Positions 3,484 to 63,906 of a DNA stretch of 64,000 nucleotides are shown in pieces (the stretch's first letter is position 1; each line of letters starts with the position of its first letter). The DNA is from Lachnospiraceae bacterium (GTDB lineage: Bacteria; Bacillota; Clostridia; Lachnospirales; Lachnospiraceae). The notes below the pieces were generated by a model, which was not told where the DNA came from, searched no databases, and saw nothing but the letters and a program-made list of their open reading frames with translations. The position numbers and the translations under genes were made by a program. The stretch is taken from assembly GCA_031272185.1 (NCBI GenBank), contig JAISUG010000058.1, positions 8,203 through 72,202 of the forward strand, in the 5' to 3' direction.

Positions 3484-4887
3484 ATGTCAGAAACTGTGGA
3501 AGAAAACGCGAACCAAATACATATAGAGGCGGAGCCTGGCGGCGTGACGGCGGCGAAAGGGTTCTACGCCGCATCCTGTGCGGCGGGCATCAAGTATGCA
3601 GGGCGGCAGGATATGGCCCTGATTTACAGCGATGCGCCCTGTTCATATGGGGGGGTGTTCACCCGCAACGTGGTGAAAGCCGCGCCGGTGGTGTGGGACA
3701 GGGAAATCCTGGCATCCGGCGGCTGCGTGCGCGCGGTGGTGGTAAATGCAGGGATAGCCAATGCCTGCACGGGGGCAGAGGGGTACGGGTATTGCAAGGA
3801 AACCGCCGCCTCGGCGGCAAGGGCCCTGAATCAAGGGATCACCGGCGATGGCATCCCAGTGGCGGATCATCGCGGCGAGAAATGGCCGGTGGATACAGCC
3901 GGGGCGCCAGGCCGTGCAGCAACGGCGGGCGGATCTGATGCGATGGGATGGGCTTCGCAAGATACGGCCATGGTCATGCCATCCCAGGTGCTGGTGGCGT
4001 CCACCGGGGTCATCGGGAAGCAGCTGCCCATGGAGAGGATCCGGGCCGGCGTGGAAATGCTTGTCGGGGGGCTGGAGACCGGCCCGGAGGCAGGGAACCT
4101 GGCGGCCAAAGCCATCATGACCACGGACACAGTGGAAAAGGAGGCGGCCGCCACGGTGGACATCGGCGGGAAGCCGGTGAGGGTGGGCGGTATGTGCAAA
4201 GGCTCGGGCATGATACACCCGGACATGTGCACCATGCTGGCGTTCGTGACCACGGATGCGGACATCTCCCCCGCGCTGCTGCAGGAGGCGTTGGCCGCGG
4301 ACGTGCAAGACACATTCAACATGGTTTCCGTGGACGGGGACACATCCACCAACGACACATTGGTGGTGCTGGCGAACGGCAGGGCGGGAAACCAACCCAT
4401 CGTGGAAAAGGGCGAGGATTACCTGCGTTTCTGTGCCGCGCTGCACTATGTGAACGAAACATTGGCGAAGAAGATCGCCGGCGACGGCGAGGGGTGCACC
4501 GCATTGTTCGAAGTGAAGGTGGTGGGGGCGGCGGATAAGGCACAGGCGGCCACATTGGCCAAATCCGTCATCGGCTCCAGCCTGACCAAGGCGGCCATCT
4601 TCGGGCACGATGCCAACTGGGGCCGGATTCTCTGCGCCATGGGGTATTCCGGGGCGCAGTTCGACCCTGAGACTGTGGATCTGTGGTTCGAGAGCGCCGC
4701 CGGGAAGCTGCAGATCGTGGAAAACAGCGTGGCCTGCGACTACAGCGAGGAGACTGCCACACAGATCCTCTCCTGCCCCGCGGTGACGGCCATCATCGAC
4801 ATAAAGGCGGGCGACGCCCGCGCCACGGCGTGGGGCTGCGACCTGACTTATGACTATGTGAAGATCAATGCGGACTACAGGTCGTGA
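3484..4887 (+). CDS. argJ: bifunctional ornithine acetyltransferase / N-acetylglutamate synthase
   Basis: GVTAAKGF...KGSGMIHPDMCTMLAFVTTDA (self-cleavage Thr context) and C-terminal CDLTYDYVKINADYRS. ATG at 3484 follows AGAGGGGA. Contains an extra segment of about 50 aa at about 3838-3984. Confidence 0.93.
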   Translation: MSETVEENANQIHIEAEPGGVTAAKGFYAASCAAGIKYAGRQDMALIYSDAPCSYGGVFTRNVVKAAPVVWDREILASGGCVRAVVVNAGIANACTGAEGYGYCKETAASAARALNQGITGDGIPVADHRGEKWPVDTAGAPGRAATAGGSDAMGWASQDTAMVMPSQVLVASTGVIGKQLPMERIRAGVEMLVGGLETGPEAGNLAAKAIMTTDTVEKEAAATVDIGGKPVRVGGMCKGSGMIHPDMCTMLAFVTTDADISPALLQEALAADVQDTFNMVSVDGDTSTNDTLVVLANGRAGNQPIVEKGEDYLRFCAALHYVNETLAKKIAGDGEGCTALFEVKVVGAADKAQAATLAKSVIGSSLTKAAIFGHDANWGRILCAMGYSGAQFDPETVDLWFESAAGKLQIVENSVACDYSEETATQILSCPAVTAIIDIKAGDARATAWGCDLTYDYVKINADYRS

Positions 4888-5077
4888 CAGAGGGCAGTTG
4901 GTAGGGGAAGGATCCGGGGTGTAGTGAGCAGGGTGAAGGGGACAGACCCAGGGAGCAGGGAACAGACCCGGGGAGCAGGGCACAGAGGAAAGCCCCAGGT
5001 TGCAAGGGATAAGGAATAGTGAATGGAGAGCCGCTGGGAAATGAATGGTACGGCGGATGGATCTTCGGGAGGGTAAC

Positions 5078-5983: not shown

Positions 5984-6176
5984 AACCAGTGCGATAAAGC
6001 CAAGATGGTACGGTAAAGCCAAGACGGCACGGGGAAGCGTAGGCGTGCGGGGAAGCCAAGACGCATGGGAACGCCAAGACGGCACGGTAAAGCCAAGACG
6101 GCACGGTAAAGCGTAGGCGTGCGGGGAAGCCAAGACGCGTGGGAACGCCAAGACGGCACGGGGAAGCGGGAACCTG
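5981..6176. repeat. tandem repeat array between argB and argD
   Basis: Units built on TAAAGCCAAGACGGCACGG and GCGTAGGCGTGCGGGGAAGCCAAGACGC recur with a higher-order period of about 75 nt. The first unit (TAAAACCAG...) starts at the argB stop codon. Confidence 0.85.
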
Positions 6177-7653: not shown

Positions 7654-7747
7654 GCCCGTTACCGCAGCCCGTTACCGTCGCCCGTTACCGCAGTCCGTTA
7701 CCGTCGCCCGTTACCGCAGTCTGTTACCGTCGCCCGTTACCGCAGCC
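7654..7747. repeat. 13-nt tandem repeat, about 7 copies (GCCCGTTACCGCA / GCCCGTTACCGTC alternating)
   Basis: Read directly. The last copy contains the TAA stop (7737-7739, minus strand) of the C11 peptidase gene. Confidence 0.9.
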
Positions 7748-10673: not shown

Positions 10674-10687
10674 GGCTATCCCTTTCC

Positions 10688-10860
10688 TTTCGTTCGATCT
10701 CGATGATCATGCCCACCCGGTGGGTTCTCCCGGCCAAGTGCGACGTGCTTAGCTTTCTTTGCGATCGCTTTCCATGATCATGTCCACCCGGTGGGTTCTC
10801 CCGGCCAAGTGCGACGTGCTTAGCTTTCCCTTCGCTCGATTTCCATGATCATGTCCACCC
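10688..10860. repeat. about 70-nt tandem repeat (2.5 copies) spanning the rpiB 3' end to the C11-peptidase start
   Basis: TTCCATGATCATGTCCACCCGGTGGGTTCTCCCGGCCAAGTGCGACGTGCTTAGCTTTC recurs. One copy is the last 12 codons plus stop of rpiB. Confidence 0.9.
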
Positions 10861-11311
10861 TCCTGGCGTGGCGGCCGCCCTCGAATGTGGCGCCCAGCCA
10901 CTCATCCACGATCATCTTCGCCAATTCGTCGCCCACCACCCGGGCGCCGAGGCAAAGCACGTTTGAATTGTTGTGCATGCGGGAGAGCTTGGCGGTGTAT
11001 GGCTCGGAGCAGACGCAGGCGCGGATGCCCCGGACCTTGTTTGCCGCCAGGGAGATCCCGACCCCGGTGCCGCAGATGGCTATGCCGAGGTTTGCCCGCT
11101 CACCGGAGGCGCCATCTGTGTTCGCGCCACCCAGGGCGGCGCTTCCCCCCGCCACGGCGCGGGCTACCTTTTCCCCGTATATGGGGTAGTCGCAGCTGGC
11201 GGTGTCATTGGTCCCCAGGTCTATCACTTCGTGACCTTGTGTCGCCAGGTGATCCTTGATGGTGTTTTTCAGGGCGATGGCAGTGTGGTCGTTGCCTATG
11301 GCGATTTTCAT
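10820..11311 (-). CDS. rpiB: ribose-5-phosphate isomerase B
   Basis: MKIAIGNDH...CGTGVGISLAANK...RHARRV, typical RpiB/LacAB. Carries an extra Gly/Ala-rich segment of about 20 aa (about 11095-11160). Confidence 0.9.
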   Translation of the reverse strand: MKIAIGNDHTAIALKNTIKDHLATQGHEVIDLGTNDTASCDYPIYGEKVARAVAGGSAALGGANTDGASGERANLGIAICGTGVGISLAANKVRGIRACVCSEPYTAKLSRMHNNSNVLCLGARVVGDELAKMIVDEWLGATFEGGRHARRVDMIMEIERRES

Positions 11312-11467: not shown

Positions 11468-12724
11468 TCATACCCCCATGCTCTGACAGTAGCATCTTTC
11501 CAGGTTCTCCATGCGGGAGGTCATGTTCACCAGCAGCAGGTCGGCGACGGTGAATGCGGCCATGGATTCCACCACCACCACCGCCCTGGGCACGATGATG
11601 GGGTCGTGGCGGCCCTTGATTTCCGTAGTCACTTCCCGGGCATCCCTTGTCACGGTCCGCTGGGGCAATGATATGGATGCGGTGGGCTTGATGGCGGCCC
11701 GCACCGTGATGGGGCTGCCGTCGCTTAAGCCGCCCAGGATACCACCGGCGTGGTTGGTGGTCTTGGTGACGCGCCTGGTCGAATCCAGGGCGAATGCGTC
11801 GTTGTTTGTGGTACCCAGGCTTTCGGCTGCCTGGAAACCGTCGCCGATCTCGAAGCCCTTCACCGCGCCGATGGAGCAGATGGCCTGGGCCAGGCGTGCG
11901 CTTAGTTTGTCAAACACGGGCTCGCCGACGCCCGGGGGCATCCCGGTGATGACGCACTCCACCACGCCGCCTGCGGAGTCACAGTGCGCCATGATGCCTT
12001 CAAGGTAGGACTGTGCCCGCGCCGCCGCCCCTGCATCCGGCATGTACAGGGGGTTTTGGCGGCAGGTGGCGATGGCGGCAGCGAGTCGGTCATCCAGCGG
12101 GCCGGGTGGTCCGTCGGGGGATAGGGGGCTTTGCGTGCGGGCATATCCCGATCCGGCGTTTGCCGGCCGGTCATCGGAGCCGCCGGTATTGCCGGTGGTC
12201 ATGTGAGGCTGCCTATGGTGCAGGGGGCTTGGCGCATGTACGGGTCCCACGGACAGGGTGTAGGCATGTACTTCGATCCCCAGCCGTTCCAATAGTTTCT
12301 TGGCTATGGCTCCCGCCGCCACCCGCGCGGTGGTTTCCCGGCCGGAGGAGCGGCCGCCGCCCCGGTAATCCCTAAAGCCGTACTTCGCATCGAAACCGAA
12401 ATCAGCATGTCCCGGGCGGTAGATGTCCTTGATCTCGCTATAGTCCCTGCTGCGCTGGTCTGTGTTTCGTACCAGCAGCGAGATGGGCGTGCCGGTGGTC
12501 AGGCCCTCGAAAACGCCGGACAGGATCTCCACCAGGTCGGCTTCCTGCCTGGCTGTGGCATAGGGGCTTTGGCCGGGCCGGCGCCTGTCCAGCATCCCCT
12601 GTATGTCCGCCTCGCACAGCTCCAGCCCTGCGGGCACGCCGTCCACCACGGCGCCGATCCCTTTGCCGTGTGATTCGCCCCAGGTGGTCATGCGGAGGAT
12701 GGTGCCTATCGAAGAACCTGCCAT
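11468..12724 (-). CDS. aroC: chorismate synthase
   Basis: TTWGESHGKG N-terminal signature and conserved C-terminal RHDPIIVPRAV. RBS AAGGAAAGG. Insertion of about 50 aa at about 12090-12235. Confidence 0.92.
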   Translation of the reverse strand: MAGSSIGTILRMTTWGESHGKGIGAVVDGVPAGLELCEADIQGMLDRRRPGQSPYATARQEADLVEILSGVFEGLTTGTPISLLVRNTDQRSRDYSEIKDIYRPGHADFGFDAKYGFRDYRGGGRSSGRETTARVAAGAIAKKLLERLGIEVHAYTLSVGPVHAPSPLHHRQPHMTTGNTGGSDDRPANAGSGYARTQSPLSPDGPPGPLDDRLAAAIATCRQNPLYMPDAGAAARAQSYLEGIMAHCDSAGGVVECVITGMPPGVGEPVFDKLSARLAQAICSIGAVKGFEIGDGFQAAESLGTTNNDAFALDSTRRVTKTTNHAGGILGGLSDGSPITVRAAIKPTASISLPQRTVTRDAREVTTEIKGRHDPIIVPRAVVVVESMAAFTVADLLLVNMTSRMENLERCYCQSMGV

Positions 12725-17984: not shown

Positions 17985-19214
17985 ATGAAAAAAAGAGGGA
18001 TGTCGGAGATTGTGGCGGTGGCAGCGGCGGTGGCGCTGGCGGTGTCCGGGTTGGTAGGCTGCGGAGGTTCCGGTGGTGCGGCCACCCAGGCGGCAGGCAC
18101 GTCAGGGGCCGGCGCCGGGGCGGATGCGAGCGCGGCGGGGCAAGGCAGCGCTTCCGGCGAGGGGACCGCTGCGGCAGGTGCGGGTACCGCGGCCGGGGAG
18201 TCTGCCAAACCACAGCCGGGCGGCGAGCTGTACGTGTACAACTGGGGCGAGTACATCGACGAGGACGTCATTGACATGTTCGAGGACGAAACCGGCATAC
18301 AGGTCATTTACGATGTGTTCGAGACCAACGAGGAGATGTACCCTGTCATCGAAGCGGGGGGCGTGTCCTATGACGTGGTGTGCCCGTCGGACTACATGAT
18401 CCAGAAGATGATCGAGAACAACCTGCTGGCGAAGCTGGATTTTTCCAACATCCCCAGTTTTGATCAGATAGATCCCAGGTTCGTGGAGGATTCCAAGAGC
18501 TTCGACCCGGACAACGCATATTCGGTCCCCTATACATGGGGCACGGTGGGGATCCTGTACAATACTTCCCTGGTGCCGGAGGACAAAGCCCCCACCAAGT
18601 GGGCGGACCTGTGGGACGAGTCATTCAAAGGCGAGATCCTCATGCAGGACAGCGTGCGGGATGCGTTCATGGTGGCCTTGAAAATGCTGGGGTATTCCCT
18701 GAACTCCACCGACGAAAAGGAGCTGGAAGAGGCCAAGGACCTGCTCATCGCCCAGAAGCCCCTGGTGCAGGCATATGTCATCGACCAGGTGCGGGACAAG
18801 ATGATCGGCGGCGAGGCGGCCATCGGCGTGATCTACTCCGGGGAGATGCTATACATCCAGGAGGAAGTGGAGTCGCTGGGCCTTGACTACGAACTGGAAT
18901 ACGTGCTGCCGGAGGAGGGGAGCAACGTCTGGATCGACGCCTGGGTCGTCCCCGCCAATGCCAAAAACAAATACAATGCGGAGCTGTGGATAGACTTCAT
19001 GTGCCGGCCTGAGATTGCGCTGAAGAACTTCGAGTATATCACCTACTCCACCCCCAACAAGGGCGCATTTGACATGCTGGACGAGGATCTGCAGACCAAC
19101 AAGGCCCTCTTCCCCGACGCAGAGGCCCTGAAAAACTGCGAGGTCTTCCGCTACATGGGCCCCGAGGCAGACGAACTGTACAACAACCTCTGGAAAGAGG
19201 TGAAGAGCAACTGA
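17985..19214 (+). CDS. potD: spermidine/putrescine ABC transporter substrate-binding lipoprotein
   Basis: Lipobox LVGC after a signal peptide and a PotD-like body (YVYNWGEYI...PYTWGTVGILYN). ATG at 17985 follows GGAGGAG. Gly/Ala/Ser linker of about 55 aa after the lipobox. Confidence 0.9.
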   Translation: MKKRGMSEIVAVAAAVALAVSGLVGCGGSGGAATQAAGTSGAGAGADASAAGQGSASGEGTAAAGAGTAAGESAKPQPGGELYVYNWGEYIDEDVIDMFEDETGIQVIYDVFETNEEMYPVIEAGGVSYDVVCPSDYMIQKMIENNLLAKLDFSNIPSFDQIDPRFVEDSKSFDPDNAYSVPYTWGTVGILYNTSLVPEDKAPTKWADLWDESFKGEILMQDSVRDAFMVALKMLGYSLNSTDEKELEEAKDLLIAQKPLVQAYVIDQVRDKMIGGEAAIGVIYSGEMLYIQEEVESLGLDYELEYVLPEEGSNVWIDAWVVPANAKNKYNAELWIDFMCRPEIALKNFEYITYSTPNKGAFDMLDEDLQTNKALFPDAEALKNCEVFRYMGPEADELYNNLWKEVKSN

Positions 19215-19876: not shown

Positions 19877-21970
19877 ATGATGTTTGAGTATCCCATCGAC
19901 GGGGAGACGCTCCTGCGCAAGTACAGATCCATCCGGCGGGAACTTATGGGGGGATGCCAAGGGGACTGGCTGGACAAGCGCATCGCCATCCTGGGGGGCT
20001 CCACCACTGCGGAAGTGCGCAAGATGCTGGAACTGTTTTTGCTCTACCATGGGATCAGGCCTGTGTTTTATGAGTCGGAGTATGGGGCATACTGGCGGGA
20101 TGCCATGTTTGGCAATGATGCCCTGGCGGCATTTGCGCCGGACGTGATCTACATCCACACCACGGTGCGCGACATCGAACGCTTCCCGGAGGTGGGGGCT
20201 GCCGGCGGCGCAGGTGGGGCCGGCGAACCGACCCCGGGAAAGGGAGGACTCTTGGCCGGGGAAGCGCACCCCGATGGGGCGGGCACTGCCGAAGTGGCAG
20301 ATGCTTCGAAGTGCCCGGGTGGCGCCGTGGCAGACGTTTCGAAGTGCTCGGGTGGCACCGGGGCAGGCGCAGCATCTGCCGAGGATGCCCTCCTGGCGCA
20401 GGAGTTCGGGCGTTTTCGCGGCATGTGGGAAAAGCTGGCTGCGGATTACCATTGCCCCATCATACAGAACAACTTCGAGTACCCGGACGTGCGCCTGCTG
20501 GGCAATGCAGACGCATACATGCAGGGCGGGCGTGTGCGTTTCGTCTCCCGTCTGAACCTGATGTTCGCTGACTATGCGGCTACCCACGGCGGCCTGTATA
20601 TCAACGACATCAACTGGCTGTCGGCAGACTATGGGCTGGGGCGGTGGGCGGACCCGTTTTACTGGCATATGTACAAATACGCCATGGCCCTGCCGGCGAT
20701 CCCACACCTGGCGCAGAGTGTGGCCCGTATCGTCAAGTCCCTTTACGGAAAGAACAAAAAGGTGCTGGCGCTGGATCTGGACAATACCCTCTGGGGCGGC
20801 GTGGTGGGCGACGACGGGCCCGAAAACCTGGAGATGGGGCAGGAGACCTCCGCCGGGCAGGCTTTCGCCGCAATGCAGTCATACGTGAAGGCGCACCCAA
20901 AGCTCGGGGTGGTGCTGGGTGTCATTTCCAAAAACGACGAAGAAAACGCCCTCGCCGGGCTGCGCCGCCCGGACAGCGCGCTGGCGCCGGAAGACTTCGC
21001 ATCCATCAAGGCGAACTGGCAGCCGAAAAGCCAAAATCTGGTAGAGATGGCGGATGAGCTGGGGCTTTTGCCGGATAGTTTCGTGTTCGTGGACGACAAC
21101 CCCGCGGAGCGGGAGATCGTCAGGCGCCAGGTCCCGGGCGCGGCCGTGCCGGACATGGGGCAGCCGGAGCTCTACATCAGGGCGCTGGACCGCAATGGGT
21201 ATTTTGAGGTGACGGGGCTGTCGGCGGACGACCTGGCCCGGGGGGATATGTACCGGGAAAATGCCCGGCGCAAACAGGCCGAGACGGCATTTGCCGATTA
21301 CCATGCGTATTTGGAGTCGCTGGAAATGGCGGCGGAGATCGCACCGTTTGCGCCCATGTACATGTCCCGCATCGCACAGCTCACCAACAAAAGCAACCAG
21401 TTCAACCTGACCACCAGGCGGTATTCCCAGGAAGAGATCGAGGCCATGGCCGGGGACGGCAGGTATATCACCCTGTACGGGAAGCTGACGGACAGGTTCG
21501 GCGACAATGGGGTGGTGAGCGTGGTGGCGGGGGAGGTAGTTGGGGAAACCCTGCATATCCGTCTCTGGCTCATGTCCTGCCGGGTATTGAAGCGAAGCAT
21601 GGAACACGCCATGATGGACGAGCTGGTGCGGCGGGCGCAGGCACGGGGCGTCACGAGGATCGCGGGGTATTATTACCCGACCGCAAAAAACGGGATGGTG
21701 CGGGATTTCTACGGGGGGATGGGGTTTGAGAGGGTTTCGGGCGGTGCAACGGATGCCCTGGCGGATGGAGAAGCTGCCGGTGGTGCGGGTGGAGTATCGG
21801 GGCAGGCCGAAAGCGCGTCAGGGCAGGCCGAAAGCGCGTCAGGGCAGCCCGAAAATGCCGGAGGGACGGTCTGGGAGCTGGACATCGGGCGTGGGTATGA
21901 AGTGAAACAGGATGTGATAAAGATAGTGTGTGGCGGAAAGCCTGTGACGGATGAGGCCGGTGGCTCATAA
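19877..21970 (+). CDS. FkbH-like protein (HAD-IIIC phosphatase/acyl-loading domain plus GNAT-like C-terminal domain)
   Basis: HAD motif I LALDLDNTLWGG, ISKNDEENA, FVDDNPAERE, NQFNLTTRRY and a C-terminal LWLMSCRVLKRSME...YYYPTAKNGMVRDFY. RBS GAGGGGGG. Gly/Ala-rich insertions at about 20190-20400 and 21740-21870. Confidence 0.8.
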   Translation: MMFEYPIDGETLLRKYRSIRRELMGGCQGDWLDKRIAILGGSTTAEVRKMLELFLLYHGIRPVFYESEYGAYWRDAMFGNDALAAFAPDVIYIHTTVRDIERFPEVGAAGGAGGAGEPTPGKGGLLAGEAHPDGAGTAEVADASKCPGGAVADVSKCSGGTGAGAASAEDALLAQEFGRFRGMWEKLAADYHCPIIQNNFEYPDVRLLGNADAYMQGGRVRFVSRLNLMFADYAATHGGLYINDINWLSADYGLGRWADPFYWHMYKYAMALPAIPHLAQSVARIVKSLYGKNKKVLALDLDNTLWGGVVGDDGPENLEMGQETSAGQAFAAMQSYVKAHPKLGVVLGVISKNDEENALAGLRRPDSALAPEDFASIKANWQPKSQNLVEMADELGLLPDSFVFVDDNPAEREIVRRQVPGAAVPDMGQPELYIRALDRNGYFEVTGLSADDLARGDMYRENARRKQAETAFADYHAYLESLEMAAEIAPFAPMYMSRIAQLTNKSNQFNLTTRRYSQEEIEAMAGDGRYITLYGKLTDRFGDNGVVSVVAGEVVGETLHIRLWLMSCRVLKRSMEHAMMDELVRRAQARGVTRIAGYYYPTAKNGMVRDFYGGMGFERVSGGATDALADGEAAGGAGGVSGQAESASGQAESASGQPENAGGTVWELDIGRGYEVKQDVIKIVCGGKPVTDEAGGS

Positions 21971-22053
21971 TCAACTGGGTTTGGGGATTGATCTGCGAAC
22001 ACGAAAAGGCAATTGGTGTGAATAAACACGCAGAGTCTGGGATAGGTGTATGT

Positions 22054-22387: not shown

Positions 22388-24664
22388 TTGTCAATAATTT
22401 CCTTGCCGTTCTTTGTTTTCGTGGCTGTGGTGTTGCTCCTATACTATATCGTGCCCATGAGGGTTCGCTGGTGCGTGCTGCTGGCGGCCAGCGCGGTTTT
22501 TTTCGTGTTGAATTCCATGTCGGCCGGAGCGGGCGCAGCAGCCGGAGCGGGCGCAGCAGCCGGGGCGGGTGCGGCAGCCGGGGCGGGCGGGATAGCCGGG
22601 GCAGGTGCGGCAGCCGTAGCAAGCGGGATAGCCGGGATAGCCTGGCAGCTGCCGCTCATTTTCCTGTGCCAGGTGGCGTTGGCCTATGTGGGGGGCCTGG
22701 CGGCAGGGGATGCAGGTTTGCCCGCCGGGGGCTTGGCGGCAGCAAGTCCGTCCGGACAGGTACAGCCAGGAGGAAATGACGTACCGCAGAGGGCAGGTGG
22801 GGGCGGTGTGGACGCCTCGCACGTGTCGGCAAGGTGGGGCGGAAGAAACAAGCATCTTATCGTCACGGCAGTTATCTTGCTGGAAATCGCAGCGCTTATC
22901 ATATGGAAAGAGAACTCCTTTTTCACCATCAACGCAAGGCTGGTGCGGGGGATGCTGGGGTTGTCCGCAGACGCCGCGTACTGGGGGTGGCTGGCACCCA
23001 TCGGCATGTCTTACTATACCCTGATGCTCGTGGGGTATGTGGCGGACGTAGCCTGGGGGGAGGGCAAGCCCCAGGAAAACTTCCTGAAACTCATGCTGTT
23101 TGCGGGGTATTTCCCCCAGATGGTGTCCGGACCGTTCACCAGGTACGCCGAAATCAGCCCGCAGCTGTATGGGGGGCATCGGTTCGACGGCAGGGAATTT
23201 TGCTTCGGCGTCCAGCGGTTTTTCTGGGGCCTTTTCAAGAAGCTGGTGCTGGCGGAGCGCCTGGCCGTGGTAGTGGCGGCGGTGTATGATGGAGGTGCCT
23301 GGGCGGGTGCGGCATCAGGCTCCGGGGCCGCTGTAGGTGCAGGCACAGGGGCCGCTGTAGGTGCAGGGGCACTGGCAGCGATGAGGTTGGGTGCCGTCAC
23401 CGTCTACGGGGCAGGAACTGCCGGGGCGGGTACAGCCGCCGCCGCAGGAGTTGCCGCTTTGGCAGGCGCCGGTGGGGGGTATGCCACGGGGGCGGCGGTC
23501 CTGGTGGGGTTTGCGGCCTATGCGCTGCAGCTGTATACGGATTTCGGCGGCTGCATGGACATGCTCATCGGCATCTCCCAGATGTTCGGCATACGCCTGC
23601 CCGAAAACTTCCGCACACCTTTTGCGTCCACCAGCCTGTCCGAGTTTTGGCGCCGCTGGCACATCACCCTGGGGCTGTGGCTCAAGGACTATGTGCTTTT
23701 CCCGTTCCAGCGGTCGCGTTTTGCGGGATGGGTGCGGGCGCGCATTTCCCATCGGGTGGGGCTGCGGTTGTTGAAGGCTTCCCAAGCCCGGCCCGGAAAC
23801 TACTTAAGTGCAACTTTCGTAAATGGTACTCAGAATGAACCGGGTCAGCCTACAGATGCCGCCCGAAAGCAATTGGAGAGGATGGCGCACAGGCAAGGCG
23901 AGAAAGCGGGGAACCGCATCGTCACTTACTTGGGGCTGTCCCTCCTCTGGTTTTCCATCGGGTTCTGGCACGGCGGTTCGTACAAATTCATCTTCTGGGG
24001 GCTGCTCACATTCGTCTTCATCGCTGGGGGGATGTTGCTGGATCCCGTTTTTCGGAAGATGGCGCAGGTGCTTCATGTAAGCACCACGTCCCGCGGGTTC
24101 CGGCTGTTTTCGAAGGTGCGGACGGCGGCGCTGTTCATCGTCAGCCTGAGCTTCCAGAGGGCACAGAGCCTGCCGGAAGGCTTGCGTATGTGGGGGCGGG
24201 TGTTCGGGGCAGGGGCAGGTGGGGCAAACGTGGCAAACCCTATCGGAACAAAGCTAACCGGTGCGGCGGCAGCTGTCGTGACTGCCGGGTTGCAGGGAGC
24301 TATGCCGGCCACACAGACTGCGGCAGGGGTGGTGATGCAGGGCGTAGGCGGTTTAGGGAATGCGCTTTGGCAGCGAACGTCTAACATGGATATAGCGGTT
24401 GGGATGCAGGGCGTAGGCAGTGTAGGGAATGCCTTGGCCGGGTTCGGCCTGGAGGGCAAAGACCTGTTGGTGCTGGTGTGCGGCCTGGCGGTGCTGTTCA
24501 TAGTATCCCATGTCCAGTCGCATGGTTCCGTCCGGGAAGCCATCTCACGCAAGCCCTGGCCCCTGCGTGGCCTACTCTGGGCAGCCCTGGTGGTGGCCGT
24601 GGTGGTCTTCGGGATGTACGGGCGGGGATATGACCCCGGTTCTTTCATTTACGGGGGGTATTGA
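22388..24664 (+). CDS. MBOAT-family membrane O-acyltransferase (DltB/AlgI-like)
   Basis: MBOAT histidine motif SEFWRRWHITLGLWLKDYV and many TM helices. The start is uncertain. TTG at 22388, after GGGGGTGG, gives a typical SIISLPFFVF N-terminus. The ATG at 22253 would add 45 W/C-rich residues and overlap the ACP gene. Three Ala/Gly-rich insertions. Confidence 0.8.
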   Translation: MSIISLPFFVFVAVVLLLYYIVPMRVRWCVLLAASAVFFVLNSMSAGAGAAAGAGAAAGAGAAAGAGGIAGAGAAAVASGIAGIAWQLPLIFLCQVALAYVGGLAAGDAGLPAGGLAAASPSGQVQPGGNDVPQRAGGGGVDASHVSARWGGRNKHLIVTAVILLEIAALIIWKENSFFTINARLVRGMLGLSADAAYWGWLAPIGMSYYTLMLVGYVADVAWGEGKPQENFLKLMLFAGYFPQMVSGPFTRYAEISPQLYGGHRFDGREFCFGVQRFFWGLFKKLVLAERLAVVVAAVYDGGAWAGAASGSGAAVGAGTGAAVGAGALAAMRLGAVTVYGAGTAGAGTAAAAGVAALAGAGGGYATGAAVLVGFAAYALQLYTDFGGCMDMLIGISQMFGIRLPENFRTPFASTSLSEFWRRWHITLGLWLKDYVLFPFQRSRFAGWVRARISHRVGLRLLKASQARPGNYLSATFVNGTQNEPGQPTDAARKQLERMAHRQGEKAGNRIVTYLGLSLLWFSIGFWHGGSYKFIFWGLLTFVFIAGGMLLDPVFRKMAQVLHVSTTSRGFRLFSKVRTAALFIVSLSFQRAQSLPEGLRMWGRVFGAGAGGANVANPIGTKLTGAAAAVVTAGLQGAMPATQTAAGVVMQGVGGLGNALWQRTSNMDIAVGMQGVGSVGNALAGFGLEGKDLLVLVCGLAVLFIVSHVQSHGSVREAISRKPWPLRGLLWAALVVAVVVFGMYGRGYDPGSFIYGGY

Positions 24665-38118: not shown

Positions 38119-39047
38119 TTTAGCTCCTGTGTTCGTTTGTGGCATGCCTGGGTGGCTTTCAGTACGCTGTTGCGGAAACCATATTCTTCCAGAGCCGCCA
38201 CCGCCGCGATGGTGGTGCCCCCCGGTGAGCATACATTGTCCTTGAGCGCGGCGGGGTGTTCGTGGGTCTGGAGCACCATCATGGCCGCACCCATCACCGC
38301 CTGGGCAGCCATCTCAATGGCCTGGGCGCGTGGCAGCCCATAGAGCACGCCGCCGTCGGCGAGGGCTTCGATGAGCATGTAGGCATAGGCGGGGGAAGAC
38401 CCGCTGACGCAGACCACCGCATCCATCAGGCGTTCCTCCACCTCCACCATCTTGCCGAAAGAGTTGAAGATGCGCCTCACCGTCTCCCGCTCCTGGGCGG
38501 TGAGGATGCCAGCCAAGGGCGCCGGTGCCGGCCCGGAAGCTGTTGGCTGTCGGTCCGGGGTACCTGAGGCGTCCGGGGCGGGCTCACCGGTTACGGTCAA
38601 TGGGCCGGGGGTGGGTGGGGCGGCGGTATCGGCAGGGGGCGCATCCCCCATGCACACCCCGCTCATACCTGCGCCCAGCAAGGCCGGTGTGTTGGGCATG
38701 GCGCGGACGACCTTGATATGTGCGCCCAGGGCGTCACGCAGCCGCCCGATGGTGATGCCCGGCGCGATGGAGACGACCACGTGGTCTTCGGTGAGGCTGT
38801 CCTTTATATCCGCAAGGACGCCGTCAAAAAACTGGGGCTTTACAGCCAAGACGATGTACTTCACCCGCCTCGCCAGGTCGGCGTTGCCCGCCGCCGCCGG
38901 GGCGCCTGTCTCGGCGGCCACCGAGGCGAGTTTTTCGGTGTCTTTGTCGACGATCAGGGCGGACCTGGGCCCGAAAGAAGCGAGGAGGCCGCACAGTATG
39001 GCCTTGCCCATGTTGCCGGTGCCGATGATGCCGATGTTTGGGTTCAT
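38115..39047 (-). CDS. proC: pyrroline-5-carboxylate reductase
   Basis: IGIIGTGNMG N-terminus and C-terminal SPGGTTIAAV motif. Pro/Ala/Thr-rich insertion of about 50 aa at about 38510-38660. Confidence 0.9.
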   Translation of the reverse strand: MNPNIGIIGTGNMGKAILCGLLASFGPRSALIVDKDTEKLASVAAETGAPAAAGNADLARRVKYIVLAVKPQFFDGVLADIKDSLTEDHVVVSIAPGITIGRLRDALGAHIKVVRAMPNTPALLGAGMSGVCMGDAPPADTAAPPTPGPLTVTGEPAPDASGTPDRQPTASGPAPAPLAGILTAQERETVRRIFNSFGKMVEVEERLMDAVVCVSGSSPAYAYMLIEALADGGVLYGLPRAQAIEMAAQAVMGAAMMVLQTHEHPAALKDNVCSPGGTTIAAVAALEEYGFRNSVLKATQACHKRTQELK

Positions 39048-41112: not shown

Positions 41113-42957
41113 ATGGGTATGACTTACAGCAGCACCAGGGGCATGGAAAAAGGCGTCACCGCATCCCAGGCGATCCTGAAAGGCATCGCATCGGACGGCG
41201 GGCTCTTCGTGCCGGACCGGCTCCCCAGGCTGTTTGCGGGAGGTGGTGCGGACGGGGCGGCAGGCACTGTCACGCTGCCGGATGCACCTGCGGTTGCGGG
41301 GGCCGCGCCCGGAGGGGGCGCACCGGAGGGTCCGGGGGCGGCAGACGGGGGCGGCGGGGCCTTGATCCCTTTGGGGGCCTTGGCCGGGATGGACTACCGG
41401 GAGGTGGCGTTTGCGGTCATGCGCCCGTTTTTGGCTGATTATACAGATGAGGAGCTGAAAGGCTGCATCGACAAAGCATACGACGACAAGTTTGACACAC
41501 CCGCCATCGCGCCGCTGCGCAAGGTGCGGTTCCCTGCGGGGGGATCCGGCAGTGCCGGCGATGGTCAAGGGGCCGCCGAATCGCCGGGCCCGGGGGCGTT
41601 GGGGCAGGCCAGGCGCCCGGACTGGCCCGGGGGTGTGGGCGCCCCGTCCTATGACGCATTTTTCCTGGAGCTGTTCCATGGCGCGACCATCGCATTCAAG
41701 GACATGGCATTGTCCATATTGCCCCACCTGCTGACGGTGGCGGCGCAGAAGAACCACGTGGGCGAAAAGATCGTCATATTGACTGCCACGTCGGGGGACA
41801 CCGGGAAGGCGGCCATGGCGGGGTTTGCGGACGTGCCGGGCACCGAGATCATAGTGTTTTACCCCAAGGGCGGGGTCAGCCGGGTGCAGGAGCTGCAGAT
41901 GACCACCCAAAAAGGCTCCAACACCCACGTGGTGGCCATCGAGGGCAATTTCGACGACGCCCAGACCGGCGTGAAGAAGATATTTGCGGACAAGGGGATG
42001 GGGGCGCTGCTTCTGGAAAAAGGCTGCCGCCTGTCCAGCGCCAATTCCATCAACATCGGGCGGCTCGTGCCGCAGGTGGCGTATTATGTCTATGCCTATG
42101 GGCAGCTGCTGCGGGGCGGCGAGATCGAACCGGGGGACGGGATCAACGTGGTGGTGCCCACCGGGAATTTCGGCAACATCTTGGCGGCATATTTCGCCAA
42201 GGGGATGGGGCTGCCCATCAAGACCCTGATATGTGCTTCCAATGACAACAAAGTGCTGTTTGATTTCTTCCAAAGCGGCGTGTATGACAAGAACCGGGAG
42301 TTCATCCTGACGGATTCGCCGTCCATGGACATACTGGTGTCCAGCAACCTGGAGCGGCTGCTGTACCTTAGCGCAGGGCGGGATGCGAAGCTGTGCGCAG
42401 ACCTCATGGCAGGGCTTTCCGGTTGCGGCGAATACCATGTGACGCCCGGGATGCGCGCGCATATGGCGGATTTCTGGGGCGGGTTCGCCAACCAGGATGA
42501 GGCCGGGGCGGCCATAGGGAGGGTGTTTGGGGACAATGGGTACGTGATAGACACCCACACGGGGGTGGCGGCGGCTGTTTACGGGAAATACCTGGCCCAG
42601 ACCCACGATGCGACGAAAACGGTCATAGCAGCCACCGCCAGCCCATATAAGTTTTCCGTGAGCGTGGTGAAGGCGATACGGGGTACGCAGCAAAGCGCAT
42701 GCCCGGCGGGGACAGACAGGTCTTCGGGCGGCGCATGGGGCAAAACGGGCGGCAGTTCGCCTGGGGCGGGGACACCGGTGGCAGGCGGCGGCGTGGCATC
42801 CGGTGACGAGTTTGCCAGCATCGAGGCGCTCCACGCACTGAGCGGGGTGCCCATCCCACAGGCCATAGAGGAAATCAAGACCGCACCGGTGCTGCACCAC
42901 AAGGTGTGCAGTGTGGAGGAGATGGCAGATGCCGTGAAGGAAGCGCTGGGGCTGTGA
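41113..42957 (+). CDS. thrC: threonine synthase (with three low-complexity insertions)
   Basis: YSSTRG N-terminus, PLP-lysine context HGATIAFKDMALS and SANSINIGRL. The start is either ATG 41113 or ATG 41119, after GGAAAGGG. Confidence 0.9.
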   Translation: MGMTYSSTRGMEKGVTASQAILKGIASDGGLFVPDRLPRLFAGGGADGAAGTVTLPDAPAVAGAAPGGGAPEGPGAADGGGGALIPLGALAGMDYREVAFAVMRPFLADYTDEELKGCIDKAYDDKFDTPAIAPLRKVRFPAGGSGSAGDGQGAAESPGPGALGQARRPDWPGGVGAPSYDAFFLELFHGATIAFKDMALSILPHLLTVAAQKNHVGEKIVILTATSGDTGKAAMAGFADVPGTEIIVFYPKGGVSRVQELQMTTQKGSNTHVVAIEGNFDDAQTGVKKIFADKGMGALLLEKGCRLSSANSINIGRLVPQVAYYVYAYGQLLRGGEIEPGDGINVVVPTGNFGNILAAYFAKGMGLPIKTLICASNDNKVLFDFFQSGVYDKNREFILTDSPSMDILVSSNLERLLYLSAGRDAKLCADLMAGLSGCGEYHVTPGMRAHMADFWGGFANQDEAGAAIGRVFGDNGYVIDTHTGVAAAVYGKYLAQTHDATKTVIAATASPYKFSVSVVKAIRGTQQSACPAGTDRSSGGAWGKTGGSSPGAGTPVAGGGVASGDEFASIEALHALSGVPIPQAIEEIKTAPVLHHKVCSVEEMADAVKEALGL

Positions 42958-45442: not shown

Positions 45443-45474
45443 CCGGGGAAGGCATCCAGAGCTTTCCCCGGTTT
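45443..45474 (+). terminator. possible intra-operon terminator/attenuating hairpin
   Basis: CCGGGGAA...TTCCCCGG stem followed by TTTC. The T-run is weak. Confidence 0.4.
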
Positions 45475-46334: not shown

Positions 46335-46339
46335 GATGA

Positions 46340-46600
46340 AGGGCTCCGTTGGCACTGTGCCTATCGGTGCGGGAGTGGATGGGGCGGCTTGTGCGGCAGA
46401 TGTGGTAAGTGCGGTAGATGCGGCGGCTTGTGCGGCAGATGCGGCTGGTGGTGCGGTGGATGAGGCGGTTGGTACGTCAGATGTGGTAAGTGCGGTAGAT
46501 GCGGTAAGTGCTGTAGGTGTGGTGAGTGAGATAGGTGCGGTAGGTGCGGTGGATGCAGTAGGTGCGGTAAGTGCGGCAGATGCGGATGTGATGGTGAAAG
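46340..46600. repeat. degenerate short-period repeat array (GTGCGGTAGATGCGG-type units)
   Basis: About 260 nt of related 9-15-nt units between the permease stop and the ATPase RBS. Open in frame with the ATPase gene. Confidence 0.85.
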
Positions 46601-46608
46601 GGGGACAT

Positions 46609-48589: not shown

Positions 48590-48598
48590 CGATATAGG

Positions 48599-50520: not shown

Positions 50521-50808
50521 ATTATGGCCAGGGGCTGCAGGGGCTGCTCGACCAGACTGGCCAGCCCGGCCAGCCCGGCCAGCCCAGCTAGTCTGGTGAC
50601 TACGATTTTGGCCGCATCGCCCAAAGGCGGGGCACCCGATGTATCAAATGGGACACCGTGCCGGAGGGGGTCATCCCATTGTCCATAGCTGACAGCGAGC
50701 GAGAAAAGACAGGCGAGAAGAGACGGGCGGGAAGTGACAGGCGACGGGCGAAGAGGTTCCTGGCCCAGTTCAGTCTTTCGGACAATTATACCATTTAGGG
50801 GGTTTGAT

Positions 50809-56768: not shown

Positions 56769-56779
<11 letters not shown>

Positions 56780-57668
56780 CTGACCCGGTCATGACTGACC
56801 CGGTCATGAATGTCTCGCCCCGGGCGTGGATTGGCACGATGCGGTCTTTGTAGGGGGCGGCGGCCGGCAGCGCTTTCAGCCGGTCTATGATGGCGAGGTC
56901 ATCCCACATGTGCATGGGGAACACGGTTTTTGCGCCCACGGTGCGCATGAAGTCGTCGATGCCCAGGTAGAAGTTGTCTTCCAGCCTGGGGTCCAGTGGC
57001 AGGAAAGCCGCGTCCGCGCCGCCGTTTGGTACGGGGGCCGTCGCCCTCCCGGCCGGGGAGACCTGGGGCGGGAAGCCTGCGTCCGTGCCGCCGCTTGGTA
57101 CGGGGGGAATGTCCAGCGGGCGGTCCTTTTCCGAAATACTGCGGTGGAAACTCATGACATCTTGGGCGATCAGCCCCAGTTCATGGTGGTAGTCTGTGGT
57201 CATCCGGCGCAGCCAGTCCTCCGGCTCGCCCTCCCAGTACCAGTGGTTGAGGTCGCCGGCATGGAAAATGAGTTGGTGGGATACGGCGATCAGGAAAGCG
57301 ACGCCCTCGTCGGTGGAGCGGTATGTCTTGACGGTCATCCCATTGATTTCGAGGGTTTGCCGGGGTTTGACAAATGTGGTCAGTTCTTTGCATTCCGGCG
57401 GGACCCTCCGTGGGGGTATGTCGTCGGAGAGGATGAAAAACACGCCGGACGGGGGGGATGGTTGGGGCGCTGCATGTGGCGCCGCTTGCCGCGGCGCCAA
57501 TCCGAAGATCTTCTGGGAAAAATGGTCCCCGTGGACGTGGCTGGCGAACACGTACAGTGTCTTGCCGCCATCAAATGCGGGCAGCTGCCCCTCGAACCAG
57601 TCGAAGAGCAGATATCGGTCGGCCAGTTCCACCAAAAAGCCGCTGTGGTGCAGGTATGTGACCTTCAT
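56769..57668 (-). CDS. MBL-fold metallo-hydrolase
   Basis: [11 protein letters not shown] and HVHGDH (HxHxDH) motifs. Low-complexity insertions. The C-terminus [13 protein letters not shown] is encoded by a 15-nt repeat and overlaps the clpB 3' end by 11 nt. Confidence 0.8.
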
Positions 57669-61014: not shown

Positions 61015-63906
61015 ATGGGGATCGGGACGTCGCAGGTGCGGGTGGACGCATACGAAAAGGTAACGGGCGGGGCGAAATACACGGCGGACATGGAGCCCAA
61101 AGGCACGCTGGTGGCGAAACTGGTGCGCAGCACCGTCGCCAATGGCCGGGTGCTGGGGTTTGATTTGAAAGAGGCTTGGGCTGTGGAGGGTGTGGAGGAC
61201 ATCGTCACCTGCTTCGACGTGCCGGAACACCCCTACCCCACACCCGGGCACCCCTGGTCGGTGGAACCCTCCCACCAAGACGTGGCGGACCGGCGGATGC
61301 TCAATGAACGTGTGCGCATATACGGGGACGACATTGCGGTGGTGGTGGCCCGTGACGAGGTGGCCGCCAAGAGGGCCGCGGGGAAGATACGGGTGGAGTA
61401 CGAGGAGTACAGGCCGCTCCTGACGGTGGCACAGGCGCTGGGCAGGGACATCTCGCCATGGTGGGCGAAAGAGGCGGCACAGTCTTTGCCGCCGGGGTCG
61501 CTAGGTACCCCTGCCGGTGAAGAGTCAGGCGCGGCCCGAAATACATTCGTCCGTGAACGGGCACCGGCCCCTGACTGTATTGGGGACGACAGGACAGGGT
61601 GGGGCGAAGGCGATGCCACGGCGATCCACGAGGAGTGTGCGGACAACTGCCTGAAGCACACCGGGTTTCGCCTGGGGGAGGGCGCATTCCACGACTTCGA
61701 GGGCATGGACGGCGTGGCGGTGGTGCAGAAAGTGTACAGGACCCAGACCGTGCAGCATTGCCACATCGAGGTCCCGGTGTCTTTCGCATACATGGAACAT
61801 GACAGGGTGACGGTGGTGAGCTCCACCCAGATCCCCCACATCGTGCGGCGGGTGATCTCCCAGGCCTTGGGGCTGGACATGGGGCGCATCCGGGTGATAA
61901 AGCCCTACATCGGCGGCGGGTTCGGCAACAAGCAGGAAGTGCTCTACGAACCGCTCAATGCGTTCCTGGCCATGCGCCTGGGCCGCCCGGTGAAAATCGA
62001 GCTAAGCAGGGAGGAGACCCTGGCCTGCACCAGGGTGCGGCACGCCATGGAGTTCCAGCTGGGCGCCGCGGCCACGCCTGACGGGCGGCTTCTGGGGCGC
62101 AAATTCGTGGCCTACTCCAACCAAGGGGGCTACGCCTCCCACGGCCATGCGTTGATTGCCAATGCCGCGGGGGAGTTCAAACAGATCTACCGGGACGAAA
62201 AGGTGCTGGAATCCGACAGCTACACGGTATACACGAACATTTCCACAGGCGGGGCCATGCGGGGATATGGGATCCCCCAGGGCGTCTTCGCAGGGGAGGC
62301 GTTGATGGACGACCTCGCGCGAAAGATCAGCATGGACCCCCTGGAGTTTCGCCTGCGCAACTGCGTCCGGGAGGGGTACGAAGACCCCCACACACATGTG
62401 ATGTTCCGCAGCTACGGCCTGCGCCGCTGCATCGAGGTGGGGCGGGAGCGGTTCGGGTGGGACGAGAAGAGGGCGAGGTACACCCGGGAAAACGCGGATC
62501 TTGCGGATGGGGCGGGGACAGACAAAGGCACCGATGCCGCGGGTGCGGGGGTATCGACAGGCGCTGTGAAGACAGACGTTGCGGCGATGACAGGCGTATG
62601 CGCTGATACGGCAGGTGCGGGGGCCGGACAAAAGCGCCGGGGCGTGGGCATGTCCATATTCATATACAAGACGGGCGTCTACCCCACCTCGCTGGAAACG
62701 GCATCTTGCCGCATGGTGCTCAACCAAGACGGTTCGGTGCAGCTCCAGATGGGCGCCACGGAGATCGGCCAGGGGGCAGACACGGTGTTCACCCAGATGG
62801 CGGCCCAGGTGCTGGGGATACCCGAAAGCAAGGTACACATCATCTCTTTCCAGGACACGGACGTGACGCCTTTTGACACGGGTGCATACGCATCCCGCCA
62901 GTCCTACGTCAGCGGGAAAGCGCTCAAGCAGACGGGGGAACTCCTGAAAGAAAAGATCCTGGGGTATGCGGCCGGGATGCTCCGGGGCGAATCGCAGGGC
63001 GGACCGCAGGGCAAATCGCAGGGCGGATCGCAGGGCAAATCGCAGGGCAAATCGCAGGGCGAATCGCAGGGCGGACCGCAGGACGGACCGCAGGGCGGAC
63101 CGCAGGACGGATCGCAGGTCGAATCGCTGGGCGAATCGCAAGCCGAGGCCGAGGGGGCGGCAGCGGGGGGCGTAGCTGTCCCGTATGACGTTCTGGGTAC
63201 AGATGGTGCAGGCCCCGGGGCGGCGCATGCTGCCAGCATAGCTGCGCATGGACGGCACCCGGCGGTGTCCGGCCTGGATATCGCAGGTGATTTCATCGTC
63301 GAGAAAGCGACGGGGCGACGGCTATTGAGCGTGGGCGACGTGGCCATGACGGCATTATACAGTCTGGATGAATCGGTGCACATCACCGCGGAGTCCACGG
63401 TGCATTGCAAGGACAACACGTTTTCCTCCGGGGCGTGCTTCGCGGAGGTGGAGGTGGACATCCCCCTGGGCAAGGTGAAAGTGCTGAACTTGCTCAATGT
63501 ACACGACTCCGGCACCCTCTTAAACCCGCAGCTGGCCAGGGCGCAGGTGCACGGGGGCATGAGCATGGGGCTGGGGTTCGGGATGTATGAGGAGCTGCTC
63601 TACGACGAAAAGGGCCGCCCCCTCAACGACAACCTGCTGGACTACAAGCTGCCCACTGCCATGGACACGCCAGACCTGCAGGTGGAGTTCGTGGAGGTGG
63701 AGGACCCCACGGGGCCTTTCGGCAACAAGGCGCTGGGCGAGCCGCCGGCCATCCCGGTGGCCCCGGCCATACGCAATGCGATCCTCCACGCCACGGGGGT
63801 GGCGTTTGACAGCCTGCCCATGACGCCCCAGAAACTGGTGGAAGGGTTCTGGAAAGCGGGGCTGACGAAGCGGCCCCAACCACATGTACAGGGAATGGCC
63901 GGGTGA
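61015..63906 (+). CDS. xanthine dehydrogenase-family molybdopterin-binding subunit
   Basis: N-terminal a/b-hammerhead (VDAYEKVTGGAKYTAD), Moco motifs (YIGGGFGNKQE, GATEIGQGADT) and C-terminal GEPPAIPVAPAIRNA. ATG at 61015 follows AGGAGA. Two low-complexity insertions, including a 12-nt in-frame repeat at 62987-63150. Confidence 0.88.
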   Translation: MGIGTSQVRVDAYEKVTGGAKYTADMEPKGTLVAKLVRSTVANGRVLGFDLKEAWAVEGVEDIVTCFDVPEHPYPTPGHPWSVEPSHQDVADRRMLNERVRIYGDDIAVVVARDEVAAKRAAGKIRVEYEEYRPLLTVAQALGRDISPWWAKEAAQSLPPGSLGTPAGEESGAARNTFVRERAPAPDCIGDDRTGWGEGDATAIHEECADNCLKHTGFRLGEGAFHDFEGMDGVAVVQKVYRTQTVQHCHIEVPVSFAYMEHDRVTVVSSTQIPHIVRRVISQALGLDMGRIRVIKPYIGGGFGNKQEVLYEPLNAFLAMRLGRPVKIELSREETLACTRVRHAMEFQLGAAATPDGRLLGRKFVAYSNQGGYASHGHALIANAAGEFKQIYRDEKVLESDSYTVYTNISTGGAMRGYGIPQGVFAGEALMDDLARKISMDPLEFRLRNCVREGYEDPHTHVMFRSYGLRRCIEVGRERFGWDEKRARYTRENADLADGAGTDKGTDAAGAGVSTGAVKTDVAAMTGVCADTAGAGAGQKRRGVGMSIFIYKTGVYPTSLETASCRMVLNQDGSVQLQMGATEIGQGADTVFTQMAAQVLGIPESKVHIISFQDTDVTPFDTGAYASRQSYVSGKALKQTGELLKEKILGYAAGMLRGESQGGPQGKSQGGSQGKSQGKSQGESQGGPQDGPQGGPQDGSQVESLGESQAEAEGAAAGGVAVPYDVLGTDGAGPGAAHAASIAAHGRHPAVSGLDIAGDFIVEKATGRRLLSVGDVAMTALYSLDESVHITAESTVHCKDNTFSSGACFAEVEVDIPLGKVKVLNLLNVHDSGTLLNPQLARAQVHGGMSMGLGFGMYEELLYDEKGRPLNDNLLDYKLPTAMDTPDLQVEFVEVEDPTGPFGNKALGEPPAIPVAPAIRNAILHATGVAFDSLPMTPQKLVEGFWKAGLTKRPQPHVQGMAG

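Follow-up and report, generated by a model that had tools for sequence, protein, structure and literature searches.

Low-complexity inserts within enzymes are well known in Plasmodium and in a few other eukaryotes of extreme base composition. Such inserts in housekeeping proteins of Plasmodium falciparum, described by Pizzi & Frontali, are thought to form extruded surface loops (summarised in PMC2705789). Surveys of prokaryotes tie low-complexity and simple-sequence proteins to surface, membrane, and transport roles and find them depleted in metabolism; these surveys also report a Gly/Ala/Pro/Ser bias, a dependence on genomic GC content, and an enrichment of GGC and CCG codons that is ascribed to slippage (PMC1524752, PMC6821194). 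Rickettsia palindromic elements also insert in frame in protein-coding genes (example cited in PMC5656822). A search of the literature for a bacterial precedent returned only general surveys. Here, we examine 20 low-complexity segments in 11 proteins encoded by a 64,000-nucleotide stretch of a Lachnospiraceae genome (GenBank assembly GCA_031272185.1, contig JAISUG010000058.1, positions 8,203 to 72,202; hereafter, the window), and we propose that they probably arose by slippage or duplication of DNA and were filtered by selection.

Low-complexity insertions in conserved proteins

An initial annotation of the window, made from the sequence alone, listed 17 segments in 11 proteins. Translation located all of them within ~30 nt of where they had been placed, and we added three (XDH 61429-61611, MBOAT 22688-22849, and MBL 57444-57503). 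The resulting 20 segments span 15-97 amino acids (aa) and typically measure ~35-55 aa. They are given below with their open reading frames (ORFs) and with arrays from TRF (Tandem Repeats Finder); XDH denotes a xanthine dehydrogenase-like Mo subunit.

3832..3981 (+), ArgJ insert, ~47 aa; ORF 3415-4887, aa 140-189; the least low-complexity of the set
11099..11143 (−), RpiB insert, 15 aa, Gly/Ala-rich; ORF 10820-11311, aa 57-71
12065..12229 (−), AroC insert, ~48-55 aa, Pro/Ser/Gly-rich; ORF 11468-12724, aa 166-220
18063..18230 (+), PotD linker at the N terminus, of Gly/Ala/Ser/Thr, following the lipobox Cys; translation and Pfam
20186..20386 (+), FkbH-like insert 1, ~64 aa; 33-nt x2.3 array at 20294-20370 (TRF)
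21734..21862 (+), FkbH-like insert 2, ~43 aa; 21-nt x3 array of SGQAESA units, 21800-21865 (TRF)
22514..22645 (+), MBOAT (DltB-like) insert 1, (AGAGAA)n; 18/36-nt array (TRF)
22688..22849 (+), MBOAT insert 2, Gly/Ala-rich; internal repeat at offset 36, p = 0.005
23291..23503 (+), MBOAT insert 3, ~54-70 aa; 24-nt and 15-nt arrays (TRF)
24173..24442 (+), MBOAT insert 4, ~90 aa; 69-nt-spaced duplication, 30-nt repeat at 93% identity
36483..36605 (−), GlxK insert, ~33-41 aa, Pro/Ala/Thr-rich; ORF 35580-36842, aa 80-120
38505..38645 (−), ProC insert, 44-47 aa, Pro/Ala/Thr-rich; ORF 38115-39047, aa 135-181
41233..41379 (+), ThrC insert 1, ~43-49 aa, Gly/Ala/Pro-rich; ORF aa 68-116
41527..41658 (+), ThrC insert 2, ~40-44 aa; ORF aa 166-209
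42688..42795 (+), ThrC insert 3, 36 aa; ORF aa 553-588
57015..57128 (−), MBL-fold hydrolase insert 2 (MBL2), ~38 aa; diverged 69-nt tandem duplication
57444..57503 (−), MBL-fold hydrolase insert 1 (MBL1), candidate, ~20 aa, Pro/Ala-rich; low-complexity scan
61429..61611 (+), XDH-like insert 1, ~55 aa; ORF aa 176-236
62482..62631 (+), XDH-like insert 2, ~48 aa, Ala/Gly/Thr/Asp-rich; ORF aa 527-576
62983..63273 (+), XDH-like insert 3, ~77-97 aa; ORF aa 694-790; 12-nt x13 array of GESQ/GGPQ units, 62985-63140

Gly, Ala, Pro, Ser, and Thr make up 67% of the inserts versus 35% of the protein cores. We scored as low-complexity all residues lying in 20-aa windows with at least 75% of these five amino acids, in ~46 genes called from the codon-position GC pattern (third-position GC content, GC3, of ~0.8), 30 of which are on the + strand. 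The count was 1176 residues, compared to a mean of 224 and a maximum of 417 when residues were shuffled within each protein, and 16 proteins contained such windows (shuffled mean 5.8). Nine of the ~26 cytosolic enzymes in the window carry inserts. For the comparison with other loci, gene calling was frame-aware, as a naive longest-ORF count inflates low complexity in high-GC comparators. Low-complexity residues account for 6.2% here and for 0.3-1.4% in nine comparator loci of 53-64% GC, a 4-20-fold excess, and the affected genes number 16 of 46 and 13 of 147, respectively (p = 7e-5). Low-GC Lachnospiraceae loci contain essentially no low-complexity residues in a longest-ORF census. The breadth across core metabolism is thus as unusual as the initial annotation supposed, given these proportions and the published surveys (PMC1524752, PMC6821194). 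Its description of the carriers as canonical housekeeping enzymes does not suit the FkbH-like, MBOAT, and MBL proteins.

Net insertions were called by alignment to solved homologues in the PDB. ThrC contains three, of ~43, 40, and 36 aa, relative to 8g1y. Split alignments reveal ~47 extra residues in ArgJ (against 1vz6), ~48 in AroC (5z9a), ~44-47 in ProC (3gt0), and ~33 in GlxK (3cwc), where the Pfam match also spreads 405 residues over 370 model positions; RpiB shows a 15-residue gap against 1nn4. In the XDH-like protein, aligned to 1rm6, query residues 139-199 stand opposite chain residues 136-143 (insert 1), query 490-539 opposite 431-433 (insert 2), and 148 residues opposite 71 (insert 3). 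FkbH-like insert 1 falls in a stretch of 98 residues versus 34 between aligned blocks of 3slr. The MBOAT protein exceeds DltB (6bug) by ~330 residues over four or five regions: insert 1 is part of ~81 extra N-terminal residues, insert 3 lies in 116 residues versus 62 between aligned blocks, and insert 4 is part of ~137 extra C-terminal residues. A PDB search with the MBL-fold protein gave no match, and its two segments are candidate insertions. Across the structure alignments, both flanks of the insertions keep the frame of the conserved protein.

Comparison with homologues supports the same assignment. Among the best 120 ThrC homologues listed from a 5.8-billion-sequence database, typical lengths are 494-504 aa, versus 614-641 aa for ThrC of the window, which has ~120-145 extra residues in three loops. 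About ten listed matches reach 507-552 aa; in the eight that were aligned, the extra length is N-terminal over-extension or internal duplication. One of these, P0002 (552 aa), was considered as an insert carrier and rejected, its surplus being an exact internal duplication or N-terminal over-extension and not low-complexity sequence. ProC (310 aa) shows a clean 44-column gap in 15 of 15 aligned homologues, which are 263-288 aa long. ArgJ measures 467 aa versus 407-427 aa in 118 typical listed homologues, and its insert is missing from all seven close homologues aligned; P0253 (486 aa) was rejected as a carrier because its surplus length comes from exact internal duplications. For AroC (418 aa), 147 of the 150 best representatives of 1.84 billion clusters match in at least two pieces broken at the insert site, and the top matches are 367-370 aa long. 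The inserts of ThrC, ProC, ArgJ, and AroC are therefore carried by none of the nearest homologues listed (~120-150 each). In a distant AroC, P0398, the same loop holds a different insert that is not low-complexity, indicating that this site tolerates indels. Together, the structure and homologue alignments for these four proteins indicate that the segments are lineage-specific insertions rather than family features, as the initial annotation had proposed.

For ThrC, ProC, and ArgJ, the best homologues belong to Lachnospiraceae (Enterocloster, Hungatella, Lacrimispora) and are only 60-73% identical over the conserved core, suggesting that the source is a divergent, unusually GC-rich member of the family. 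The window has a GC content of 60%, versus the 32-50% normal for the family. A search of genome contigs with ProC yielded only matches from Lachnospiraceae and others, at 50% identity or below, and clusters of window proteins at 90% identity held only the identical sequence or a spurious 51-aa fragment (P0122). In synteny comparisons with the fetched loci of relatives, DAHP synthase was the only common gene and is itself insert-free.

The proposal that the segments occupy surface loops and are disordered is borne out by AlphaFold2 models of ThrC and ProC, which were built on the homologue alignments. ThrC residues 70-106, 169-200, and 551-588 are predicted as coil with a predicted local distance difference test score (pLDDT) below 50, as are ProC residues 137-177, which lie between a strand (E128-132) and a helix (H184-195). 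All four modeled inserts sit between confident secondary-structure elements, and the cores are modeled with confidence. From the alignment gaps, we infer that the remaining 16 inserts are probably also in loops.

Strand-dependent composition and tandem repeats

The composition of the inserts depends on the strand of the gene that carries them. The GC skew of the window is positive in 15 of 16 4-kb blocks and approximately zero at 8-12 kb; from this skew and the gene orientation, + is probably the leading strand. On the + strand, G exceeds C in 19 of the 20 inserts. On the coding strand, G exceeds C in all 14 inserts of + genes versus one of six in − genes (Fisher p = 0.0004 by insert, 0.015 by gene). 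Inserts of + genes accordingly contain 25.5% Gly and 5.8% Pro, and those of − genes contain 13.0% Gly and 19.9% Pro, whereas cores have ~10% Gly and ~4% Pro whatever the strand of the gene.

The same asymmetry appears in synonymous codons (GGG, 0.50 in + versus 0.26 in − genes; CCC, 0.46 versus 0.63), which suggests that mutation is biased between the strands to an unusual degree. Third-position skew on the + strand amounts to +0.07 and +0.24, and that of intergenic DNA to +0.17. Codon use also separates the inserts from the cores: GC3 is 0.67 versus 0.80, and codons for Gly, Ala, and Thr that end in A or T are 2-3 times commoner in inserts.

The initial annotation described several segments as visibly tandem at the DNA level. 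Significant internal direct repeats occur in eight of the 20 (both FkbH-like inserts, all four of MBOAT, MBL2, and XDH-like insert 3; each p ≤ 0.005), at offsets of 12, 18, 21, 24, 33, 36, 69, and 69 nt, all divisible by 3. Both FkbH-like inserts reach p < 0.005, MBOAT insert 1 scores 41 versus a null maximum of 18, and XDH-like insert 3 scores 83 (TRF score of its array, 193). The other 12 (ArgJ, RpiB, AroC, ProC, the three of ThrC, PotD, MBL1, XDH-like inserts 1 and 2, and GlxK) are indistinguishable from codon shuffles. The description as visibly tandem does not hold for 11 of these segments and is marginal in GlxK (p = 0.03).

MBL2 is the only insert found by blastn to duplicate flanking coding sequence, with 61 nt at 79% identity to 56978-57037. 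It includes a 20-nt repeat at 95% identity and an offset of 69, pairs two 12-residue stretches in translation, and extends into native sequence. The inserts can be placed in a series of decay, from XDH-like insert 3 (13 copies at 85% identity) through MBL2 (two copies at 79%) to ThrC, in which no copies are recognizable.

Tandem arrays occur at 4.7 per 10 kb in the window versus a median of ~1 in 25 comparator loci (~5-fold), and arrays are ~9 times denser in spacers than in coding sequence. The period is a multiple of 3 in 15 of 17 coding arrays versus five of 21 intergenic arrays (Fisher p = 9e-5). A period-3 filter in genes but not in spacers fits a single mutational process combined with selection against frameshifts. 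The idea that the slippage of the spacers also acts within genes is thus supported by array density and by this filter, although direct repeats are seen in only eight of the 20 segments.

Several features of the arrays can be recorded here. The 7.4 kb of intergenic DNA hold 21 arrays (2.8 per kb), and nearly every spacer contains one (e.g., 5996-6167, 10682-10860, 40309-40444, 42953-43124, 45474-45619, 48597-48777, and 50438-50534). Several have units of ~70 nt (69, 71, 72, and 74), one is a CGAGATA heptamer repeated 19 times, and in most the + strand is rich in G. The MBL-fold gene ends in three MTGSV units encoded by a perfect 15-nt x2.5 array (56769-56809), and at their 3' ends this gene and the convergent clpB share 11 nt. 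In loci of Candidatus Eisenbergiella metagenome-assembled genomes (MAGs; L014-L017, 53-57% GC), array coverage is somewhat raised, at 0.75-3.9% of bases, without enzyme inserts; the repeat tendency of the window may be present in these loci in a milder form.

Origin of the inserts and alternative explanations

We consider slippage or duplication, filtered by selection and tolerated in loops, to be the best explanation and a probable one. The DNA of this genome would undergo tandem duplication or replication slippage unusually readily. Arrays of any period would survive in spacers, whereas in genes purifying selection would pass only frame-preserving events in indel-tolerant surface loops that encode residues of small size and high flexibility (Gly, Ala, Pro, Ser, and Thr). 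Point mutation would then wear the repeats down to non-repetitive low-complexity sequence, so that the 12 non-repetitive inserts would have begun as repeats. Composition would be set at the nucleotide level, GC-rich and with G on the + strand; because the inserts are G-rich on that strand, their translation is Gly/Ala in + genes and Pro/Ala/Thr in − genes. The inserts would most likely be kept as tolerated disordered loops without a common function and would be neutral. Strand composition, the synonymous and spacer biases, the repeats, and codon use are together an argument that the sequence originates in the DNA and that the protein only tolerates it. More tentatively, a genome-wide, strand-oriented repeat expansion in this free-living gut Firmicute might write disordered loops of 15-97 residues into approximately one-third of proteins, including enzymes of core metabolism, Gly-rich on the leading strand and Pro-rich on the lagging strand. 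Such an expansion is perhaps tied to a peculiarity of replication or repair linked with the jump to 60% GC.

The loops could instead have been selected for a function, as entropic bristles that improve solubility or behaviour under crowding, as tags for interaction or condensation, or in an adaptation connected with the shift to high GC. The inserts are far richer in GC and in Gly, Ala, Pro, Ser, and Thr than the spacers, which suggests some selection on residue type. They also stay in frame in roughly one enzyme in three, and the cores are well conserved, so the insert-bearing proteins are, judging from their sequences, probably functional. We nevertheless regard selection for function as unlikely, since the amino-acid make-up reverses with gene orientation, insert codons are less adapted than those of the core, and no carrier appears among the homologues listed from the 5.8- and 1.8-billion-sequence databases. 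The inserts share no common motif or sequence, and with the reversal of make-up this also contradicts the shared functional tag that the initial annotation had raised as a possibility.

A third explanation is that the inserts are relics of a small in-frame mobile element with replication-biased orientation, resembling the Rickettsia palindromic elements, of which the original description is reportedly that of Ogata et al. in 2000. Many in-frame insertions of similar size (~33-55 aa) at loop positions of housekeeping genes, and a uniform + strand polarity, would fit such an element. Comparison of the inserts largely refutes it, and we judge it very improbable. All-against-all blastn and Smith-Waterman comparisons of the 20 inserts gave only 13-14-nt low-complexity matches, pairwise similarity is confined to (GSN)n, and the mean local score is 12.3 versus 11.4 for the null. 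Terminal inverted repeats, hairpins, and target-site duplications do not exceed shuffled expectation, with the longest inverted repeats and the boundary direct repeats within that expectation for 20 of 20 inserts. Neither related copies nor source copies of the inserts were found elsewhere in the window. This lack of shared sequence, hairpins, and target duplications indicates that the inserts are not a mobile element.

A further alternative is that the segments stem from errors of sequencing or assembly, or from compensated frameshifts, in the draft genome; short-read assembly resolves repeats poorly. The 12-nt x13 array of the XDH-like protein (156 nt) is about as long as a read, this protein was not found in the Logan assembly, and the copy number of the array comes from one assembly. 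Against an artefact, two contigs of an independent Logan assembly of run SRR14710912 match the window with 100% identity, L001 over 6542 nt and L027 over 6897 nt (~13.4 kb in all), and they span ten segments together with their arrays, in ThrC (L001) and in PotD, FkbH, and MBOAT (L027). RpiB and MBL likewise have exact protein matches in Logan. Moreover, the conserved-protein frame is kept on both sides of the inserts, and most inserts are non-repetitive and thus easily assembled. We accordingly give an artefact, which the initial annotation had named among the outcomes that would refute it, next to no credence.

Inteins are at least ~130 aa long, begin with Cys, Ser, or Thr, and end in His-Asn followed by Cys, Ser, or Thr at the C-terminal junction. 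Inteins and other excised intervening sequences can be dismissed, as the segments are 15-97 aa long and lack intein junction residues.

Several points weigh against slippage or duplication as the general source. The classic-enzyme inserts (ArgJ, RpiB, AroC, GlxK, ProC, ThrC) all belong to the non-repetitive 12; they lack direct repeats, so slippage is extended to them by extrapolation, and comparison of inserts with their 150-nt flanks gave no significant alignment for the non-repetitive ones. GC content is 72% in inserts, 61% in cores, and 55% in spacers. The excess of inserts over spacers means that the inserts are not simply unconstrained DNA and that selection on residue type must be invoked. 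RpiB is an exception to the strand rule, as is the Gly-rich tail of the C11 protease, whose gene is on the − strand, and only five − strand genes carry inserts. The two assemblies may share the same reads, and no close relative or second strain was found in the collections searched.

Neighboring features and comparison with known systems

Domain identification with Pfam and NCBIfam places the inserts among genes of an arginine biosynthesis cluster (argH, argG, argC, argJ, argB, argD) and rpiB, aroC, potABCD, uxaC, DAHP synthase, glxK, apt, proC, dtd, thrC, fba, and clpB. The window also encodes amino-acid ABC transporters, a molybdopterin oxidoreductase, the XDH-family Mo subunit, and several cell-wall proteins. 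The most insert-laden locus is 19877-24664 (+), where genes for the FkbH-like protein, a small acyl-carrier-like protein (21988-22302), and the DltB-like MBOAT stand side by side and probably make up a carrier-dependent system of O-acyl or alanyl transfer that serves a cell-envelope polymer.

A purine riboswitch aptamer (RF00167, 60819-60930, +) that scores 40.9 bits, above the gathering score, immediately precedes the XDH-like gene. It supports a role as a purine or xanthine dehydrogenase and shows that the ORF start at 60904 is over-extended, with the true start at ~61015.

One further feature is related to the inserts:

46336..46608 (+), ABC ATPase ORF, ~91 codons of tandem repeats with periods of 9, 18, 21, and 39 (TRF)

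This stretch begins 2 nt past the stop codon of the permease gene and has a + strand GC skew of +0.56. The ABC_tran Pfam domain starts at aa 112 of the ORF, after the repeat-built N-terminal part, which is either a translated N-terminal extension or an open intra-operon spacer.

If the inserts extend genome-wide, they would offer a clean test of whether such sequence is produced by mutation pressure on the nucleotides and not by the function of the protein, since the strand-dependent switch between Gly and Pro is a direct signature of that pressure. The proposed origin, if true, would also provide a tractable system for the birth and tolerance of new disordered sequence inside enzymes. In practical terms, the inserts inflate protein lengths, split hidden Markov model matches, and lower identity scores, and they are a potential source of error in automated annotation, orthology assignment, and quality checks of MAGs in this lineage.

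Some low-complexity segments of the window correspond to an ordinary bacterial arrangement, the linkers of Gram-positive lipoproteins and cell-wall proteins. PotD has a signal peptide and lipobox (AVSGLVGC|GGSGGAATQ) followed by a tether, and its Pfam SBP domains start at aa 100-105. Its segment, initially described as an insertion between motifs, is an ordinary lipoprotein tether after the Cys and not an internal insertion. Gly/Ser/Ala/Thr-rich tethers of this type, which join a lipobox or domain to the domain that follows, are found in PotD (18063-18230), SBP_bac_3 (44558-44668), NlpC/P60 (58404-58631), and C11 protease. These linker-type segments obey the strand rule less clearly than the enzyme inserts and are best treated apart from them. 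In the C11 (clostripain-family) protease itself (7737-10673, −), a Gly-rich tail of ~100 aa precedes a transmembrane helix, and other stretches are rich in Ser, Gly, and Ala; its coding strand is G-rich despite its − orientation, unlike those of the enzyme inserts.

The enzyme inserts share their Gly/Ala/Pro/Ser bias with the low-complexity sequences of the prokaryotic surveys, along with the dependence on genomic GC and the slippage-ascribed enrichment of GGC and CCG codons, and differ from them by occurring in metabolic enzymes. With the Rickettsia palindromic elements they have in common that short stretches, tens of residues long, are inserted in frame into many housekeeping genes and tolerated at the surface. 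Those elements, however, are copies of a palindromic consensus, whereas the inserts of the window share no sequence, hairpin, or target duplication.

The closest resemblance is to Plasmodium (PMC2705789). In both, many proteins exceed the length of their orthologues through low-complexity inserts, which are non-globular and lie within globular enzymes at probable surface loops; their composition mirrors the base bias of the genome, and slippage or recombination is the proposed source. In the window, the inserts are extra segments between conserved flanks, their composition runs along the nucleotide bias of the genome, and the AlphaFold2 models put the four ThrC and ProC inserts in loops. The differences are that the host is a bacterium at 60% GC, that its inserts are rich in Gly, Ala, and Pro rather than in Asn and Lys, that composition here also depends on the gene strand, and that most inserts are not homopolymeric. 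The inserts are a bacterial, GC-rich, strand-dependent form of a known evolutionary phenomenon and not a new molecular system.

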